Assembly (NCBI GenBank): GCA_018818205.1
Contig: JAHISJ010000029.1
Span: forward strand, 1 to 62,133
Length of the DNA: 62,133 bases
Reading direction: 5' to 3'
DNA from: Patescibacteria group bacterium
GTDB taxonomy: Bacteria > Patescibacteriota > JABMPQ01 > JAHIRA01
Both the position numbers and the translations under genes were made by a program. Shown one piece after another: positions 286 to 7,920 of the stretch. The notes beneath the pieces are model-generated. The model worked only from the letters and a program-made list of their open reading frames with translations. It did no database searches and was not told the origin of the DNA. Every line of letters starts with the position of its first letter. The stretch's first letter is position 1.

Positions 286-406
286 CTGAGATTATGATTG
301 ATTATGGCACGGCTTTGTGGGGTTTTTGTTTACAAAAAAAGACCAATTTTAGGTCTTTTTCCAGTTCAATTCTCTTCAGGGTCGTGCGAGGGAGGAAATT
401 AGAACT
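286..406 (+). repeat. Cassette-boundary repeat, copy A (long form)
   Basis: About 95 nt (286-381) align with the 3' flank of tRNA-His at 7197-7290. The shared part includes GTGGGGTTTTTGTTTAC, the hairpin AAAAAGACC..GGTCTTTTT and CAGTTCAATTC. It ends in the 28-nt core GGGTCGTGCGAGGGAGGAAATTAGAACT (379-406). Confidence 0.85.
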
Positions 407-520
407 GTGTTTGTTGATTCTAGTTTGTGCTAATGTCTAACTTGATAAAGCAGGAGTAGTTATTAAATAGGTTAAATCATGAAATGCTCTGTATTTTCTC
501 TAGATAAATTGTGAGATTTA

Positions 521-549
521 AAAACGCCTCAATTTTTATTGAGACGTTT
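521..549 (-). terminator. Rho-independent terminator downstream of the 582-1439 gene
   Basis: On the minus strand the stem is ACGTCTCAAT / ATTGAGGCGT, followed by TTTTT. Confidence 0.6.
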
Positions 550-581
550 AAATTTTGCTTGGCATAAAGGTAGTACAAATC

Positions 582-1439
582 CTATAAAAAGAACACTAAT
601 ACGTTGATCCCAAGACCAATCAAAAAAGGATCTGGGATAATTGTGACACCTACATAGTAGCCAAATCCAACAGGAATATCTTTTAAAAAGAACTCGAAAC
701 CTAGGTAGGTTCTGATAACTGGTTGAATGGAGGGATATTTAAGTGTTTCTGGTAAGCCTGAAGGGTCAAAAATATTAAACCCCAGGTCAAACGAAGTTTT
801 TCCTACAAAGTTTATATTGAAGATTCCTTTTAAAAGAGGAGCTTTCAATATAAATCCAGGAGAAATTGGAACCAAATATACTCCTCTAAAAAGATTCCCT
901 TTAGGGGTGCATACACTTGAAGATGTAAAAGCCACACTAATTATGAGGCCCAGCCTAAGTTTTCCAAGTTTCCAGAGAAGCGTAGCATCTAAACTATTGC
1001 CAAACAGACCACTAGACTCTCGACACCCACGATTTGAAGTGGTCGCAGTAAATCTAATTCCAATAGCTGTTTCTATAAAGAAATTTTTCTCTTTGATATT
1101 TTTTTGACTTTTCTTGGTTTTGGCGCTTTTGGTCGTGCTGCTTTGGCTGGTTGGGCAGTAAAAAGAGTTCATTTGCCCCAAGCCCTTTCCTTTTGGAGGG
1201 AGATACACTGGCAGTCTCCCATTCTCCGCTTCTGCAATGAGTCTATACATTTCGCTGGCTTTAGAAACACAGCGTCTAAGATCCTTCAGGCAGTATGCTC
1301 CTTTTTTACAATCATTATCCCGCAGGCATTCACCAGGGAAATATTGTATCTTTCTGCATGGGAGAGTAGAAGCCTTTTCAGCACAAGCTACGTTCATTTC
1401 TATCAAGAAAAAAATCACAAACAACACTTTATTGTTCAT
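582..1439 (-). CDS. Secreted hypothetical protein: signal peptide, small Cys-rich module, then a beta-strand-rich region
   Basis: An AGGAG SD precedes the ATG. The N-terminus is hydrophobic (MNNKVLFVIFFLIEMNVACA). A CxxxxxCxxDxDCxxGxxC module follows, and the C-terminal 170 aa show alternating hydrophobic/polar residues. Confidence 0.55.
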   Translation of the reverse strand: MNNKVLFVIFFLIEMNVACAEKASTLPCRKIQYFPGECLRDNDCKKGAYCLKDLRRCVSKASEMYRLIAEAENGRLPVYLPPKGKGLGQMNSFYCPTSQSSTTKSAKTKKSQKNIKEKNFFIETAIGIRFTATTSNRGCRESSGLFGNSLDATLLWKLGKLRLGLIISVAFTSSSVCTPKGNLFRGVYLVPISPGFILKAPLLKGIFNINFVGKTSFDLGFNIFDPSGLPETLKYPSIQPVIRTYLGFEFFLKDIPVGFGYYVGVTIIPDPFLIGLGINVLVFFL

Positions 1440-1569
1440 TTTCCCACTCCTAAAGTAGAAGGTTCCTCGTTACTGCAGGATTCAAACTAACAGGTATTCA
1501 AACTGGTTACAAGTGCTTTTGTGAATCAAAACCACCAGCATTTGCGGTGGTTACTTGGTAATTTCAAAA

Positions 1570-1597
1570 GGGTCGCTTGAGGGAGGATATTAGAACT
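1570..1597 (+). repeat. Cassette-boundary repeat, copy B (core only)
   Basis: GGGTCGCTTGAGGGAGGATATTAGAACT, in the same orientation as the other copies. It lies between the divergent genes 582-1439 and 1721-2728. Confidence 0.8.
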
Positions 1598-1644
1598 CAA
1601 TGTGTAGAAGTGGGGTGTCGGAATTGGTTTGGTACATCAACCCG

Positions 1645-1673
1645 TTGACATTTGCATAAACAAATGCTATCTT
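1645..1673 (+). promoter_or_regulatory. Candidate sigma70-type promoter for the 1721-2728 gene
   Basis: TTGACA, a 17-nt spacer, then TATCTT, located about 50 nt upstream of the start codon. Confidence 0.35.
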
Positions 1674-1720
1674 TATTGGCTTTGTATAGCAAAGTGTTCG
1701 TACTTAGTTTAGGAGGTCCC

Positions 1721-2728
1721 ATGAAAAACGTATTTTTGTATTCTTTACTGACTGTTTTCTTTTTTTCACAAAACGTATTTGCTGCTCCGACAACAAAAAA
1801 GGCTACCTCAAAGCCTGTTGTGATTATTGGCAACAATGTTCCCCAAATTAAAAAAGCACGTGCGTTGCTTAGCAAGCTTTTAGTGATGGTTCGTAAGAGC
1901 AGGCAGGCCGATGCATTTGCAGCATTGAACTGGTTTAAGGATCATATGTCGCTGAGTCGTTATCAAGCAATTGACAGTTCAGTGTTAGCTGTTCATCTTC
2001 CTTCAAAAAAGCGTCCTGCGGTGAGATTCTACTATATTACTAAAAAGGATATGAAACGGTTCAAAAATATTCATGTAGTCAAGAAACTTTCTGAAGGGAA
2101 TGCTCGCGGAGGTTACAGCTGTTACCAGAAAAGCTTGTTTATTCCCGAGTCGGCTGATTGGACAAAGACGTTTCAACTGATTGTATTTTTGCATGAAATT
2201 CTGCACACCTACAATCATTTGGGTAAGAAAGTTAGAAAATGCTTAAAGCCAAAGAAACCGATTAGGACGAAAAAGCAATACAGGGCATTTGCAAAGAAAC
2301 GGTTTTTAGAATCAATGAAAGACGAAACTCGCGTGCGGGTTGTGCTTCTTAAGTTTCTCAAGGCTCTTTGGAAGAAGAAGTTTTCCGATCTTCTGGAGCA
2401 AATGAGAAAGAAGATCGTTCTTAGAGGTTATAAGCAACCACTTTATAACTCAAAAAAAGCGATTCTGGCGTTTTTGTGGCAGCTTAGGGTTATGGAGCGC
2501 GAGGTGGCAAGTGGCAGAGCAAAGCATCTTTTTAAGCCGTTTGACCTTGTTTTGGATAGCCTTTTTGGCAAACCAAAGTCACATGCAGAAATGGTTCAAC
2601 GGACCATGTTTATTTTTAGACTTGCGGTGTTCCATACGTGTGAGAAGAGTCCGCTTTTGCAACAAAAACCGTATACGCCGTTTGCTATTCAGTATAACTT
2701 TCTGAGATATACATTGAAGACGGGATAA
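1721..2728 (+). CDS. Secreted protein with an HExxH motif (possible zinc metallopeptidase-like protein)
   Basis: An AGGAGG SD precedes the ATG at 1721. The signal peptide is MKNVFLYSLLTVFFFSQNVFA. It contains FLHEILHTYNH (HExxH plus a nearby His) and is very basic. Confidence 0.55.
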   Translation: MKNVFLYSLLTVFFFSQNVFAAPTTKKATSKPVVIIGNNVPQIKKARALLSKLLVMVRKSRQADAFAALNWFKDHMSLSRYQAIDSSVLAVHLPSKKRPAVRFYYITKKDMKRFKNIHVVKKLSEGNARGGYSCYQKSLFIPESADWTKTFQLIVFLHEILHTYNHLGKKVRKCLKPKKPIRTKKQYRAFAKKRFLESMKDETRVRVVLLKFLKALWKKKFSDLLEQMRKKIVLRGYKQPLYNSKKAILAFLWQLRVMEREVASGRAKHLFKPFDLVLDSLFGKPKSHAEMVQRTMFIFRLAVFHTCEKSPLLQQKPYTPFAIQYNFLRYTLKTG

Positions 2729-2811
2729 TCATTTAGACGACACCTTTAGCACACTATTAAAGTAGTAAGCCGGATCCAAATAGTGGGTTCGGTTTTTTTG
2801 TATGCATGTAT

Positions 2812-2886
2812 GCAAAAAAGACCATTCTCAGGTCTTTTTCTCAGTTCAATTCCTGTATGGGTGGCGTGAGGGAGGAAATTAGAACT
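2812..2886 (+). repeat. Cassette-boundary repeat, copy C (hairpin-terminator + core)
   Basis: AAAAAAGACCATTCTCAGGTCTTTTTCTCAGTTCAATTCCTGTATGGG is nearly identical to 7243-7290. It is followed by the core GGGTGGCGTGAGGGAGGAAATTAGAACT (2859-2886). Confidence 0.85.
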
Positions 2887-2975
2887 CTAGAGTCAAAAAA
2901 GTAGATTTATTCTTTACAGTAGCAACTTAGTAAGCTACTGTTTTTGGTGTCCTTTGGTTTTTGTTTGGAGGAACA

Positions 2976-4001
2976 ATGAAAGAATCGATTGAAACTATTC
3001 TTGCTATTGCACATGACTATCATAAGCCATTATCGGAAGCTCTTATTGTTGGCTGGGTTAATCAGTTTCCAGAAAATACTCGATCAGTTATTTTAAAGGA
3101 ACTTGCGAAGATTTTACGTGTTTTTTACTTTTCCAAAGACCGCTTTGTGGAACTTGTTCAGACAGGATACAAAAAGGTTATCACTACACTTAAGAAAAAA
3201 TGTGACAATTCTATTACTGTAGGAGATGTGGAATTTATTAGAGGCTACTCTGAAGGAGGCGCAAGCCAAGATGAGATTCTAGATATTCTTGATGCACATC
3301 TTATGTCTGAGCATGGCATTCATGTCGATACGTGTGGCGGCGGGTATTATTTTGCCCTTTTTGATGATGCATCATACACTGGCAATAAAATGGTACACTC
3401 TGCGCGGAGATGGATTGAAGCCGAGGGTGACAAAGATAAAGTACTGGTAGTTGCACCTCTTATTATTCACACTAAAAGTTTAGATTATTTGAGCAAACAA
3501 GTCCGCGTTGCCTCGGTGCGTACTTTAAAAAAAGCTCTGGTTATCGCAGTGTATCAGGTGCAAAATACAACAACTATGGGTGGAGTGTTCCAGGGATACA
3601 TTCCTGCACAGTGTGATAATGAAAGCGTGAAAGCATTTATAGAGTGCCATCTAGATTTAGGGTATGGACAACGACTTTATAGGCCCGATAACTTTATTCG
3701 TGAAGAAAAGTTTTTTAGTTCAAAAGAAGCTAGAGAGATTGTTGAGCAGCAACTTCTAAGCAGCGGTGCACGACTTATAAACCGGTGTAGCTCTGTTGGT
3801 CGTTCAACCCGTCCCATGGGATTTGAGACGCTGGATACACTCGGATTTGGCACGCCTTTGGTTTTTTACCGCAATATTCCCAACAATGCGCCGATTGCAT
3901 TTTGGTGGGGTGTTGGACAACATCAACCGCTATTTGATCGAGTAACATACGCAGATCGTGTTGATGCTGCAGAAGAGACTGACGATGAATGGCCTTGGTG
4001 A
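2976..4001 (+). CDS. Phosphoribosyltransferase (PRTase)-fold-like protein of unknown function
   Basis: A GGAGG SD precedes the ATG at 2976. YYFALFDDASYTGNK matches the type-I PRTase PRPP loop (hydrophobic run-DD-x3-TG). The rest of the protein I cannot assign. Confidence 0.6.
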   Translation: MKESIETILAIAHDYHKPLSEALIVGWVNQFPENTRSVILKELAKILRVFYFSKDRFVELVQTGYKKVITTLKKKCDNSITVGDVEFIRGYSEGGASQDEILDILDAHLMSEHGIHVDTCGGGYYFALFDDASYTGNKMVHSARRWIEAEGDKDKVLVVAPLIIHTKSLDYLSKQVRVASVRTLKKALVIAVYQVQNTTTMGGVFQGYIPAQCDNESVKAFIECHLDLGYGQRLYRPDNFIREEKFFSSKEAREIVEQQLLSSGARLINRCSSVGRSTRPMGFETLDTLGFGTPLVFYRNIPNNAPIAFWWGVGQHQPLFDRVTYADRVDAAEETDDEWPW

Positions 4002-4671
4002 AAAGCGAGTATATGTGCAGAATGAATGTGTATTAATTCATAAAACTAACGCTCAGTGGGGCGCGCTTTCCAATATGTGTCGTGGATTCCCGATTTTACT
4101 TCCATTTAACGGTGGCAATGTAGTGCTACCCACATCTGAAGTGCTCTATCAAATGATGCGATTTCCTGAATTGATTGCGTCAGACGGATCCCACTATTTT
4201 CAAGCGCATCTTGCAAAAGAAGTGAATCCTATGAAAGCAAAAATGATCACCAAGCCTTATCGTATGCAGCACAATCGGCCTGATTGGGATTATGTACGTG
4301 TACGTATTATGCGATGGACACTTAGAATGAAATGGCTTTGCAGCTTGAGTCGTCTTGGACCGTTTCTTTTGGAGACAGGGGTTGCACCAATTGTTGAGTA
4401 CTCAAAAAGGGATGATTTCTGGGGTGCAAAGCCGATTAAAGAAAGGCCAGGACTGCTTTTGGGTTACAATGCGTTGGGTAGGTTGCTTATGGAGCTTAGG
4501 GAAGGATTGTGGCATAGAGACAACTTTCATTGGTTTTTATATGTTGAACCGCCAATTCTGCCCCACTTTACGTACGGCGAAAGACAAATTCTTCCCCTAG
4601 TGTACGAATCAGGTCTTGAGCAAGCGCTTATGGATTTTTCCTTGCAGCATTTTTGGCGGACACTAAAATGA
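3985..4671 (+). CDS. NADAR (YbiA/DUF1768) family protein
   Basis: GALSNM...LPTSEVLYQMMRF, RPDWDYVRVRIMRWTLRMKW and DDFWGAKP...GYNALGRLLMELRE align with E. coli YbiA blocks (FSNF...PTSEHYFQAQKF, NWESVKEQVMR, YWG..G.N.LG.LLMELRE). The start overlaps the upstream stop by 17 nt; the alternative start is 3958. Confidence 0.85.
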   Translation: MNGLGEKRVYVQNECVLIHKTNAQWGALSNMCRGFPILLPFNGGNVVLPTSEVLYQMMRFPELIASDGSHYFQAHLAKEVNPMKAKMITKPYRMQHNRPDWDYVRVRIMRWTLRMKWLCSLSRLGPFLLETGVAPIVEYSKRDDFWGAKPIKERPGLLLGYNALGRLLMELREGLWHRDNFHWFLYVEPPILPHFTYGERQILPLVYESGLEQALMDFSLQHFWRTLK

Positions 4672-4726
4672 AATTAAAACAAAAGCACGTGCTCTTTTTG
4701 AGTTCGTGCTCTTTTTGTTAAAAATT

Positions 4727-4754
4727 AGGTTGCGTGCGGGAAGAAATTAGAACT
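4727..4754 (+). repeat. Cassette-boundary repeat, copy D (core only, most diverged)
   Basis: AGGTTGCGTGCGGGAAGAAATTAGAACT. Confidence 0.7.
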
Positions 4755-4806
4755 GAGATGTGTAAATGTACAGCGGCAGATTTGGTTTATTGATATTTTA
4801 AAACAA

Positions 4807-4838
4807 AAAACCATCATGATGATTTACTCATGATGGTT
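4807..4838 (-). terminator. Rho-independent terminator downstream of the 4890-5285 gene
   Basis: A 12-bp stem AAACCATCATGA / TCATGATGGTTT, with a T-run on the minus strand. Confidence 0.7.
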
Positions 4839-4889
4839 TAGAACTTATTTGAATTTAGGTTAATTGGAAAGAAATAATTCAATTTAACT

Positions 4890-5285
4890 CTATGAGCAGT
4901 TTGATTGCTGTGTTAATATTTTTATTTCAAGTGCTCTTTTGTACTCCTCTTGTCGAGCAGACTCAAGAGGGGTGCCTTTTGCACGTTTCAACACTTCTTC
5001 TGCAACGTTCAGCGCAGCAACTGCTTGTTTTGGGCTAGCGCTACATTTCATTTTTTGAGCTAATTCATGAAATCTGGTCCACTCGTCATCGGTTTCCAAG
5101 TTTTCTTTGTTGGCATGGATGAGCATAATAGCCCACGAAAAGTAGTTTTCGTTTTTTCGCTCAAGACAAAGTTCTGCGAAGAGAAAAGCTTCTTCAAGTT
5201 TCTTTACTTCTTGAGCGAGTTGTTTTAAGAGGTCACGAATTTTCCCATTTTTTCCTTTAGCTTGTTTATAGAGTTTTTGAAACAT
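4890..5285 (-). CDS. Small helical hypothetical protein
   Basis: AAGGAGG lies 8 nt before the ATG at 5285 (MFQKLYKQAK...). The protein is charged and helix-prone. I recognise no motif. Confidence 0.5.
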   Translation of the reverse strand: MFQKLYKQAKGKNGKIRDLLKQLAQEVKKLEEAFLFAELCLERKNENYFSWAIMLIHANKENLETDDEWTRFHELAQKMKCSASPKQAVAALNVAEEVLKRAKGTPLESARQEEYKRALEIKILTQQSNCS

Positions 5286-5433
5286 TTCAGTCGCCTCCTT
5301 GTTTTTTGATATTAGAGAACACATGCAGAATGAATGCACCTCAGTGCATAAATGCTACGTCATTATACAATAAAAAGGGCTGGAAGTCAACCCCTTCTAG
5401 AAAAATTTAAGATAAGGTAAATTTGATTGTCTT

Positions 5434-5462
5434 AAGGTGGCTTGAGGGAGGATATTAGAACT
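5434..5462 (+). repeat. Cassette-boundary repeat, copy E (core plus a 3' extension shared with copy A)
   Basis: AAGGTGGCTTGAGGGAGGATATTAGAACT. The following GTGTTTG...AGGAGTA.GTATT resembles the sequence after copy A. Confidence 0.8.
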
Positions 5463-5612: not shown

Positions 5613-7038
5613 CTAAAAGGATGTATTATAATAAGTATTTTTAGATTGTCCCCTTTGGCTAATCAGCCCTAGTTGGCGCATTTGTTTTAAATCATGATTT
5701 AAGGTTATTCTTGGGGTTTGAGGTAATAGGTTTTCACATTCTTTTGCTTTGACAGTTTTGTTTTCAACCAAGTGTTCCCATATTTTAACTTGTCTTTCAT
5801 TTAACTTACTTAATTTTTGTCCCATTAAAATAACCTTGAAGCTATTTGATGTGTTTTTGAAAATTGGTAAAAGTAAGTTCCATTTCTGCATTTCATTAAA
5901 AACAATATCTATCCCTCTTCCATATTCTTCCAAGTAATCAAGCTCTTTCAAGCGAGCTGCTATAGTTTCATTTCTACTTACCTGGGCATCTTTAATATTT
6001 TCTATGGTGACGCCAGGTGGCAAGCAGCCAGGGTTAAACACTTCTATCCTGTCTTCAAAAATGTTTACCTGCGTGTATGTTTCAGTGGAGTTATAATCTC
6101 TATGTATAACTGCGTTGGCCACTATTTCTCTGATGGCTTTTTCAGGATACTCGTATTTTTCGATTCTTCTTGTACCAACTATTTCTGCACTTTTTCTTAT
6201 GTTTCTTAGAACAAATTTTTGCATATCGTCGATTTGATTATCCAATGTACCATCGATATCTAGGCTATCAATTATGTCAGTTGCTACATTTGACCCTTGA
6301 TACTTTACACATCTAATAACATATCTGCTAAACTGTTGTTTACGCTGTGGTTTGTCTTTGGCGAAGATTAAAAAACCCGCGAGAGTAAGTTTTTCTTTTC
6401 CTCTAAAAATATCGGCTATGCCTAAATTCTTTAATAATTCAAAATCAATTTCTTTTATAGAGCTTCTTCTCTGGGTTCTTTCACCACTTTTAATTAAAAG
6501 TTCTAGAATTTTCTCTTTTGATAAATCATCAAGCGAAGTTCCTTCTGCTGCAATAATATCGTACTTAAATTTTTTTGAATTATCTATTAAGCTTCTCATC
6601 TCGTTGTCAGTCATTTTTCTGTCAGTGTTGCCATCTCGTATATAAGCACCATGTGGTAAGCCAACTGGCTTGTAATAACAGGGCTTAAATTGATTGGGGC
6701 ATTCCGGTATAAATGGCTAAGATTGCTTTTCCTTTCATTTCTAGAATGTGGTACTCGGGCCGAAGGGTGAAGCTCATTTCATTATTCGCTAGGTCTCCAA
6801 TTTTTTCTTGTAAATTGTCAATCACATCAGTCCCTACAATCGTTAATTTATGTTTGTTCTTGTCTTCATCAATGCCAAATACAATAATTCCACCACCAGG
6901 CCGATGTGAAAAAGAAGATACCGATTTCCATATGCTTTTTGGCAAGTCATTACGAGCAGTTTTGAATTCAATACTGCTTGTTTCAGTTTTATTTTTAATT
7001 GATTCTTCAATTAGTTTTATTGTCTCTTCTTTGTCCAT
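5613..7038 (-). pseudogene. Frameshifted AlbA_2 (Schlafen-type) + HATPase_c_4 'divergent AAA / RecG-like' regulator gene
   Basis: ORF 6685-7038 encodes the AlbA_2 N-terminus (SSIEFKTARNDLPKSIWKSVSSFSHRPGGGIIVFGIDED). ORF 5613-6614 encodes the HATPase_c_4 part (REIVANAVIHRDY...SRNETIAARLKEL..EYGRGI). Shifting frame by one base near 6705-6712 restores ...AILAIYIPECPNQFKPCYYKPVGLPHGAYIRDGNTDRKMTDNE. Confidence 0.75.
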
Positions 7039-7196: not shown

Positions 7197-7290
7197 CTGA
7201 GATATTTATTGAACTGCACGGTTGGTGGGGTTTTTGTTTACAAAAAAAGACCATTCTCAGGCCTTTTTTCAGTTCAATTCCCGTATGGGG
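7197..7290 (+). repeat. Cassette-boundary repeat, copy F (long form, abutting the 3' end of tRNA-His)
   Basis: It aligns with copy A over about 95 nt and with copy C over about 50 nt. GTTCAATTCCCGT (7272-7284) is an inverted copy of the tRNA-His T-arm (7297-7309). Confidence 0.85.
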
Positions 7291-7360
7291 TGACCAACGG
7301 GAATTGAACCCGTAATAGGAGTACCACAAACTCCTGTGTTACCATTACACTATGGTCACC
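7286..7360 (-). tRNA. tRNA-His (GTG)
   Basis: The cloverleaf was folded by hand: G-1 plus acceptor GTGACCA/TGGTCAC, D stem GTGT/ACAC, anticodon stem GGAGT/ACTCC with loop TTGTGGT, and T arm ACGGG-TTCAATT-CCCGT. CCA is encoded. Confidence 0.9.
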
Positions 7361-7734: not shown

Positions 7735-7777
7735 GGGGTCCCCGAATAATTCCTATTATTTGGAGAGAAGGAGGAAC
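7735..7777 (+). repeat. Hairpin + purine-run repeat, unit 1
   Basis: GGGGTCCCCGAATAATTCCTATTATTTGGAGAGAAGGAGGAAC. The stem is CCGAATAAT/ATTATTTGG with loop TCCT, followed by AAGGAGG and the ATG at 7781. Confidence 0.75.
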
Positions 7778-7855
7778 ATCATGGAAGCTGGAGCGAGCTC
7801 CGTAGCGAAACATGAGTACTTAGCTTAGACAGGAAAAAGGAGAAAAGTAAAAATT

Positions 7856-7898
7856 GGGGTCCCCATAAAATTCCTATTTTATGGGGAAAAGGAAGAAG
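7856..7898 (+). repeat. Hairpin + purine-run repeat, unit 2
   Basis: GGGGTCCCCATAAAATTCCTATTTTATGGGGAAAAGGAAGAAG. It matches unit 1 at 33/43 positions, and the stem differences are compensatory (CCCATAAAAT/ATTTTATGGG, loop TCCT). Confidence 0.75.
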
Positions 7899-7920
7899 TG
7901 TCTTTAGGCTGGAGGTCAGT

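Follow-up and report, generated by a model that had tools for sequence, protein, structure and literature searches.

What does a gene for a phosphoribosyltransferase (PRTase)-like protein do directly upstream of, and overlapping with, a gene for a NADAR hydrolase? The question is raised by two genes at positions 2976-4671 of the + strand in a 62,133-nucleotide (nt) stretch of contig JAHISJ010000029.1 from a Patescibacteria group bacterium (the window, by which the whole stretch is meant). The original prediction for this locus described the overlapping PRTase-like and NADAR genes as a candidate conflict module whose translation is coupled, and knew of no characterised PRTase/NADAR cassette. 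Such a cassette does exist: DS-32 of E. coli, a two-gene NADAR + phosphoribosyltransferase system validated as anti-phage (DefensePredictor; bioRxiv 10.1101/2025.01.08.631726; Science 2026, PMC13092281), for which NCBIfam holds the models NF053875 and NF053876. The proposal of a coupled conflict module is borne out, in that both genes of the window are homologous to validated DS-32 and the NADAR gene keeps its place downstream of the PRTase gene across the related loci described below. We consider it very likely that the pair is an anti-phage defence module of the DS-32 type.

Membership of the pair in the DS-32 family

The two open reading frames (ORFs) and their 17-nt overlap lie exactly where the original prediction placed them. 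Gene A extends from an ATG at 2976 to a TGA at 3999-4001 and encodes 341 amino acids (aa), and gene B from an ATG at 3985 to a TGA at 4669-4671 and encodes 228 aa, both on the + strand; the overlap implies translational coupling. The start of gene A is backed by the N-terminus of its closest homolog (MNDAIETIL vs MKESIETIL) and that of gene B by the N-termini of homologs (MNDSSEKRYYPVKECILIHKT vs MNGLGEKRVYVQNECVLIHKT). Gene A matches NF053875 (DS32_1_antiphage) with E 7.7e-64 and 215.9 bits over model positions 2-322 of 322, and gene B matches NF053876 (DS32_2_antiphage) with E 2.4e-51 and 173.4 bits over positions 1-181 of 181; because the family hidden Markov models (HMMs) return E-values of this order, neither gene is a chance ORF. 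Since the matches run from end to end of the models and yet score under the equivalog cut-offs, which are the curated NCBI thresholds that imply the same function, the pair is, as judged from its sequence, a divergent member of the DS-32 family and not an equivalog, and it would not be named DS-32 automatically.

Direct comparison with the E. coli system gives the same picture. In the DefensePredictor supplement, where DS-32 is also labelled 'NADR', DS-32A is WP_000097610.1 (343 aa), DS-32B is WP_032260665.1 (203 aa) and their genes overlap by 11 nt. By BLASTP, gene A is 25% identical to DS-32A over 325 aa (E 6e-23) and gene B 34% identical to DS-32B over 194 aa (E 1e-29). Both pairs carry the same two domains in the same order, PRTase-like and then NADAR; both overlap, by 11 nt in E. 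coli and 17 nt in the window; and their sizes correspond, at 343 + 203 aa and 341 + 228 aa. They differ in host lineage and in the length of the NADAR, which in the window exceeds that of DS-32B by 25 aa; DS-32B for its part extends past the YbiA core by a C-terminal tail. Phage protection is a property of the E. coli pair, and for the clade of the window it is predicted. DS-32 was cloned as just two genes and was protective in E. coli (DefensePredictor, PMC13092281); in the part of the DefensePredictor screen table covered here, protection was strongest against Bas26 (-log efficiency of plating 3.7) and RB69 (1.6). The pair is not new as a kind, but a new divergent instance of a described and validated system.

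The assignment of gene A to the PRTases rests on family, motif and fold. Outside its phosphoribosyl pyrophosphate (PRPP)-binding loop, the original prediction had found the protein otherwise unfamiliar; it matches Pfam PF24390 (PRTase-CE) over residues 26-322 with E 9e-35 and 121.1 bits, against a gathering threshold of 27. The type I PRPP loop named in that prediction is present at residues 126-138 and follows the expected pattern of a hydrophobic strand, two acidic residues and an xxx-(T/S)-G phosphate-binding turn; across 115 family members, the conservation of D130, D131 and G136 is 90% or higher. Residues invariant in the 115 homologs include W27, E257, G282, G290, G292, N300, N303, P306 and W310, of which N303 and P306 belong to the motif PNNAP, and N304 of this motif is invariant among the four sequences of the A4 alignment. 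PNNxP has been reported as distinctive of retron-associated (III-A) PRTase-like effectors (PMC12746101). The motif is also conserved in the retron-free, NADAR-linked clade studied here. The link to PRTase-fold effectors of retrons that the original prediction raised holds as well: the PADLOC retron PRTase_III-A models match it, weakly (E 7e-11, 39.9 bits). A literature search for the term 'PRTase-CE' gave no match.

A first AlphaFold2 model of gene A, built on a three-sequence alignment, had a predicted local distance difference test (pLDDT) score of 54 and was discarded; with 115 homologs in the alignment the model reached pLDDT 94.9 and a predicted template-modelling (pTM) score of 0.91. When this model was compared with the PDB by Foldseek, a check that had been proposed with the prediction, the highest-ranking matches were type I PRTases, namely XGHPRT of H. 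pylori, UPRT of M. tuberculosis, OPRTs, PyrR and APRTs; the highest probability was 0.97, the best E 9e-3 and the target-normalised TM-score ~0.45. As type I PRTases rank first and yet none has E <1e-3, the core of gene A appears, according to the model, to be a very divergent type I PRTase. Its N-terminal helical region and its C-terminal part have no structural match in the PDB by Foldseek. A PDB sequence search with the family profile returned PyrR as the sole matches, marginal (E ~0.15) and aligned at the PRPP loop, and no solved structure for the family was found by PDB sequence and fold searches. From the conservation of the motifs and the homolog in retron-Eco11, we infer that gene A has a PRPP-dependent transferase activity.

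Gene B is a NADAR protein of the YbiA type, as originally proposed, with a match to Pfam PF08719 (E 6.5e-17, 62.7 bits, cut-off 35.1) and to E. coli YbiA (PDB 2b3w; E 9e-9, residues 12-176). The residues E52, Y55, Q56, R59, K86, E138, D143, W146 and G147 are all present and are 96-100% conserved in a clade of 84 sequences, with E52, Q56 and K86 at 100%, R59 at 96% and E138 at 98%. A glutamate in the last strand defines the YbiA subfamily of NADARs (PMC11125620); E138 lies within IVEYS, which aligns to LVEHT of YbiA, and gene B combines the domain match with the catalytic residues of that subfamily, this glutamate included. In an alignment anchored on the glutamate E52, R59 appears to stand in place of the phosphate-binding NADAR lysine, which in the E. 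coli C7 NADAR is K95, a residue whose change to arginine (K95R) leaves the enzyme active in vitro (PMC11543638).

Linkage and distribution of the pair

The extent of the family only became apparent with sensitive searches. A word-indexed homolog search found two relatives only, at 53% and 34% identity, both with a NADAR gene directly downstream; it was too insensitive for the wider family, which needed an exhaustive profile search. The latter gave 885 clusters at 50% identity for the PRTase family, 307 of them with E <=1e-30. A pattern scan of GTDB, with one genome per species, found 207 loci with a PRTase relative, of which the best 80 form the basis of the linkage counts; the HMMs used to detect neighbouring NADARs combined sequences of the window, of DS-32 and of the two close relatives. 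The best 80 loci span Bdellovibrionales, Patescibacteria, Planctomycetota, Chloroflexota, Acidobacteriota, Verrucomicrobiota, Bacteroidota, Myxococcota, Nitrospira, Bacillota and the Alpha-, Beta- and Gammaproteobacteria, and the nearest GTDB relative (32%) is from an uncultured Bdellovibrionales bacterium.

The survey of neighbourhoods that had been proposed as a further check gave a uniform answer: a NADAR ORF lies directly downstream and on the same strand in 80/80 related loci, and the homologs are not ordinary salvage PRTases lacking NADAR linkage, the outcome named beforehand as the one that would speak against the module. Among the 79 pairs with assigned start codons, 54 overlap, 75 are <=20 nt apart and seven share the identical 17-nt overlap, and one of the longer members (P0148) is a natural single-chain PRTase-CE+NADAR fusion. 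Many of the pairs sit inside type I restriction-modification (R-M) operons, because hsdM is directly upstream in 32/80 loci (40%; e.g. L010:3476-5902, L008:9978-12977) and hsdR downstream within ~3 kb in 25/80. The pair of the closest relative adjoins NYN, Fic and PD-(D/E)XK genes. Clustering of neighbouring ORFs over the 80 loci revealed no conserved third gene family beyond the type I R-M subset; several of the large clusters turned out to be artefacts of six-frame translation in high-GC genomes.

Many longer PRTase-CE members carry N-terminal extensions that the window protein lacks. P0085 has a C-terminal HRDC domain and P0006 (L092-L094) an N-terminal FGE-sulfatase domain, both with NADAR still downstream, and the many unassigned N-terminal extensions fall into no fewer than three additional groups that are not related to one another. 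Sensor modules of defence proteins typically show this kind of variation in domains. In P0024 (L091:4001-5551) an N-terminal domain resembles nucleoside 2-deoxyribosyltransferases, with a Pfam match below threshold, and no NADAR follows; in this single case the NADAR may have been replaced by another N-glycosidase fold. P0024 also adjoins a BrnT/BrnA toxin-antitoxin (TA) pair.

The distribution is patchy: the pair turns up sporadically in many phyla, and is found on megaplasmids, within type I R-M operons and next to TA genes. PRTase homologs are rare on plasmids (seven records), where pairing with NADAR is also seen, and in RefSeq these plasmid relatives are labelled 'hypothetical protein' + 'NADAR family protein'. 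The cultured-phage genome collection yielded no PRTase homolog, and BFVD holds one PRTase-CE protein labelled Siphoviridae. PADLOC (2023) has retron models only for the PRTase and no model for the NADAR.

Several points of general interest follow from these comparisons. The DS-32 module reaches far beyond E. coli, with at least 207 GTDB species genomes and the 885 clusters of the PRTase family; its PRTase and NADAR are essentially always paired, at times fused, and often lie within type I R-M operons; and the PNNxP motif that has been called retron-specific is common to NADAR-linked PRTases. Divergent pairs fall under the NCBI naming thresholds and are therefore annotated as a hypothetical protein next to a NADAR family protein. 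For the window itself the outcome is another instance of a described system.

Genomic setting of the pair

The pair occupies one unit of a short repeat array (Table 1), in agreement with the original description of a discrete cassette in a repeat-bounded array. The 22-nt direct repeats that flank it are real and belong to a set of five copies, at 384, 1575, 2864, 4732 and 5440, all on the + strand and within 384-5461, where shuffled sequences lead one to expect 0. The repeats delimit short units of unrelated content that adjoin tRNA-His. Upstream of the pair, the hairpins at 2767-2839 are terminator-like and would close the preceding gene (1652-2728) and insulate the pair. Pfam, NCBIfam and PADLOC give no significant match for the product of that gene, possibly an uncharacterised secreted metallopeptidase. 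On the other side, the AlbA_2 and HATPase_c_4 ORFs follow each other head to tail, with ~70 nt between them and in different reading frames. As a rule the two domains belong to one protein, and the region 5613-7038 on the - strand therefore looks like a frameshifted or split gene.

Table 1. Positions of the gene pair, its motifs and the surrounding features in the window
Feature	Position	Strand	Basis
Secreted protein, in its own repeat-bounded unit	582-1439	-	
Secreted HExxH protein (LHEILH), 358 aa, signal-peptide-like N-terminus, in its own repeat-bounded unit	1652-2728	+	
Terminator-like hairpin	2767-2795	+	Terminator scan
Second hairpin, GACC...GGTC with T-run	2814-2839	+	From sequence; also repeat family D5
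Left 22-nt direct repeat, GCGTGAGGGAGGAAATTAGAAC	2864-2885	+	Repeat scan
GGAGG, Shine-Dalgarno-like, 4 nt before the gene A start codon	2967-2971	+	From sequence
Gene A, PRTase-CE phosphoribosyltransferase-like, DS-32A homolog	2976-4001	+	Pfam, NCBIfam, BLASTP, AlphaFold2, Foldseek
PRPP-binding loop FALFDDASYTGNK, residues 126-138	3351-3389	+	Conservation in 115 homologs; PyrR alignment
PNNAP motif (PNNxP), residues 302-306	3879-3893	+	Conservation in 115 homologs
Gene A/gene B overlap, 17 nt	3985-4001	+	From sequence
Gene B, NADAR (YbiA-type) N-glycosidase family, DS-32B homolog	3985-4671	+	Pfam, NCBIfam, BLASTP, YbiA match
Gene B catalytic-site residues E52, R59, K86, E138	E52 4138-4140; K86 4240-4242; E138 4396-4398	+	Conservation in 84 sequences
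Right 22-nt direct repeat, GCGTGCGGGAAGAAATTAGAAC	4732-4753	+	Repeat scan
149-aa helical protein, in a repeat-bounded unit	4890-5339	-	
HATPase_c_4 + HTH ORF	5613-6614	-	Domain match
AlbA_2 (Schlafen-type) ORF	6685-7038	-	Domain match
tRNA-His	7286-7359	-	tRNA detection

The 3' flank of tRNA-His (7222-7289) recurs, over ~65-70 nt, at 314-381 (85% identity) and at ~2787-2860, and at both places these copies, 80-85% identical, directly precede a 22-mer. By eye the 22-mer resembles a decayed 3' end of the tRNA (GGAAATTAGAAC vs GGAATTGAAC); an origin of the repeats as tRNA fragments was dropped, as they give no match to the Rfam tRNA model. The array looks like what one insertion after another at a tRNA-His hotspot would leave behind, but no integrase is present. 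The 22-nt repeat is absent from 82 related loci and has six single matches and no arrays in the metagenome collection, and a tRNA is nearby in 3/27 related loci, so adjacency to tRNA genes is not general. Ordinary chromosome makes up the remainder of the window. Between a DUF6899 gene and tRNA-Leu(CAA), at 7735-7914, there are two 59-nt direct repeats with 73% identity and a distance of 121 nt.

Mechanism, rival explanations and comparison with known systems

In type I PRTases a nitrogen nucleophile displaces pyrophosphate from PRPP. The PRTase of retron-Eco11, a homolog of gene A, depends on its PRPP motif and, once activated, reduces the cellular PRPP level by ~50% (PMC12746101). NADARs hydrolyse ribosyl-N linkages, such as those of guanine-N2-ADP-ribose (ADPr) in DNA and of the 5-phosphoribosylamino pyrimidines formed during riboflavin synthesis, and serve as antitoxins to DarT1 and YarT (PMC11543638, PMC11125620). 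Because the PRTase would make an N-(5-phosphoribosyl) adduct and a YbiA-type NADAR cleaves such bonds, a toxin with an enzymatic antidote is the mechanism we favour. Gene A would bind PRPP and, once unleashed by infection, would transfer 5-phosphoribose to a nitrogen nucleophile, possibly a nucleobase, either of a nucleotide or within DNA/RNA; the transfer would drain PRPP and/or make a toxic adduct, and phage replication would be stopped. Gene B would hydrolyse the N-(5-phosphoribosyl) linkage, might also bind the PRTase, and would thereby protect the uninfected cell, as NADAR does for DarT1 and YbiA for YarT. The chemistry suggested by the partner enzyme is that of PRPP and 5-phosphoribosyl groups, and nothing in the two proteins points specifically to ADP-ribose. 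The comparisons demonstrate predicted active sites that are intact in both proteins, homology to a validated pair, conserved order, adjacency and overlap across phyla, and a setting in defence islands for many relatives; the mechanism, drawn by analogy, is tentative and by itself has a little less than even odds. A single figure that blends both judgements, the one on the DS-32-type defence module and the one on the toxin/enzymatic-antidote mechanism, is roughly 0.6.

A more specific version, in which PRTase-CE puts 5-phosphoribose on a nucleobase of DNA or RNA (e.g. on the exocyclic amine of guanine or cytosine) and the NADAR is a dedicated eraser, is conceivable and rather doubtful. The HRDC-fused relatives that keep their NADAR, the DNA-binding domain of the retron homolog (PMC12746101) and the activity of NADARs on base-linked ribosyl adducts in DNA (PMC11125620, PMC11543638) are compatible with a nucleic-acid substrate and do not prove one. 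If true, a phosphoribosylated nucleobase would be a previously undescribed modification of nucleic acids, and DS-32 would be the PRPP-based counterpart of NAD-based DarT-NADAR.

A number of observations weigh against the combination of DS-32-type defence with toxin and antidote. Both proteins fall under the NCBIfam equivalog cut-offs (215.9 vs 250 and 173.4 vs 240 bits), and at just 25-34% identity to DS-32 the function is transferred from a distant relative; Pfam and PADLOC scans found no recognisable defence genes immediately beside the window pair. No biochemical activity has been reported in the literature for the DS-32 proteins, the DefensePredictor papers contain no toxicity or rescue data for the system, and a literature search found no later mechanistic paper on it. 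The retron-Eco11 PRTase alone is not toxic in E. coli (PMC12746101), and no acceptor is known for the defence-associated PRTases that have been studied, Eco11 (PMC12746101) and ShosT (PMC11961720). A constitutive cycle of toxin and antidote would moreover waste PRPP, and additional control must therefore exist.

The same two activities could also be arranged as a futile cycle of co-effectors, in which the PRTase phosphoribosylates an acceptor and the NADAR regenerates it at once; the net reaction would be PRPP + H2O -> ribose-5-P + PPi, and the activated pair would starve phage nucleotide synthesis. This is the main rival to the toxin/antidote reading, and we judge it unlikely. The strict 1:1 coupling, the overlap and the natural fusion fit a single pathway as well as they fit toxin and antidote, both active sites are conserved, PRPP depletion is the sole measured effect of activating the homologous retron-Eco11 PRTase (PMC12746101), and the PRTase of ShosT is likewise coupled to a further hydrolase, a pyrophosphatase that drives the reaction (PMC11961720). 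Yet every characterised NADAR of a conflict operon is the protective partner (DarT1-NADAR, YarT-YbiA; PMC11543638, PMC11125620), the retron PRTase depletes PRPP with no NADAR at all (PMC12746101), and the cycle would require a separate off-switch, of which none is evident. The pair might instead be the effector part of a larger retron-like or R-M-linked system, and non-functional alone in the window. PRTase-CE relatives are indeed effectors of three-part type III-A retrons (PMC12746101), 40% of the related pairs lie inside type I R-M operons, and many relatives have variable N-terminal domains, of which the window protein has none; but DS-32 is protective in E. coli as two genes only, the other 60% of the loci have no conserved third gene family beside the pair, and near the window pair, whose genes have their own ribosome-binding site and are bracketed by putative terminators, there is neither a reverse transcriptase (RT) domain nor an Rfam non-coding RNA (ncRNA). 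We think an incomplete system of this kind improbable.

The toxin/antidote reading must also be weighed against two proposals that give the enzymes other substrates or no role in conflict. One follows the ADP-ribose-centred framing of the original prediction, in a module centred on ADP-ribose or NAD: the NADAR would strip ADP-ribose from DNA/RNA, or degrade NAD-derived signals made by phage or host ADP-ribosyltransferases (ARTs), with the PRTase-like protein as an enzyme of NAD/nucleotide salvage or a sensor. All tested NADARs, those of the YbiA type included, hydrolyse guanine-ADPr in vitro (PMC11125620), and phage NADARs adjoin NAD salvage PRTases such as NadV. Little credence can be given to this proposal, however, as a Pfam scan of the window links no ART, sirtuin, TIR or macro domain to the pair, no third gene family recurs over the 80 loci, the PRTase falls outside the NadV/nicotinate type (PyrR and type I PRTases for purines or pyrimidines match its fold best), and the lysine that binds the ADPr phosphate appears to be arginine in 96% of the gene B clade. 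Least probable is a housekeeping pair with no conflict role, in which an unusual nucleotide-salvage PRTase would accompany a YbiA-like damage-control N-glycosidase acting on riboflavin intermediates. The PRPP loop of gene A is canonical and gene B weakly matches TIGR02464, the riboflavin-intermediate N-glycosidase model, at 54.5 bits, but this score is below the cut-off of 73.7 and far weaker than that for DS32_2 (173.4 bits). The window pair is, moreover, an apparently insulated, repeat-flanked cassette adjoining a tRNA gene; no solved salvage PRTase is found at E <1e-3, by sequence or fold, the distribution is patchy (megaplasmids, type I R-M operons, TA neighbours), and the E. coli homolog DS-32 protects against phage. 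A salvage-enzyme reading was rejected on these grounds.

Among known systems other than DS-32, the type III-A retron effectors, e.g. of Retron-Eco11 (PMC12746101), share the Pfam family PRTase-CE, matches to PADLOC PRTase_III-A, the PRPP loop and PNNxP with gene A, and they provide phage defence with PRPP depletion on activation. They differ in a winged-helix C-terminal domain that is absent in the window, where the partner is a NADAR, and the model match is weak (39.9 bits vs 215.9 bits to DS32_1). Assignment to a type III-A retron was rejected: the neighbouring ORFs contain no RT domain, and Rfam detects no ncRNA but tRNAs in the window. ShosTA (PMC11961720) resembles the pair in being an anti-phage system whose toxin has a PRPP-binding type I PRTase domain coupled to a second hydrolase. 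The ShosT PRTase is, however, APRT-like, fused to a pyrophosphatase and of no detectable sequence relation to gene A, and the antitoxin of that system, ShosA, is not a NADAR but a DprA-like protein that binds DNA. YbiB of E. coli K-12 is a TrpD2 protein (anthranilate-PRTase-like), of a fold class other than type I PRTase-CE. In the LexA-controlled dinG-ybiB operon, a YbiA-type NADAR is linked to this YbiB, a predicted DNA-binding/phosphoribosyltransferase protein (PMC11125620); the operon differs in being DNA-damage inducible and is not known as phage defence.

The closest parallel in chemistry is with DarT1-NADAR (DarTG1) and YarT-YbiA (PMC11543638, PMC11125620), where a NADAR/YbiA hydrolase likewise stands beside a transferase with an activated ribose donor and acts as antitoxin by removing the ribosyl-N adduct. 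The window NADAR also has the YbiA-type glutamate (E138) of the YarT partner. In those systems the toxin is an NAD+-using ADP-ribosyltransferase, whereas the window protein has a predicted PRTase fold, with PRPP as the expected donor, and no ART fold, as is also stated of the DS-32 partner in the DefensePredictor study; the adduct in the window would be 5-phosphoribose and not ADP-ribose. DarTG1 itself was rejected as an assignment, the partner being PRTase-CE and not an ART, and the NADAR having the YbiA-type glutamate and not the catalytic aspartate of the BC4488 type. If the chemistry proposed here is right, the DS-32 family would be a PRPP-based analogue of the ADP-ribosylation toxin/antitoxin systems.

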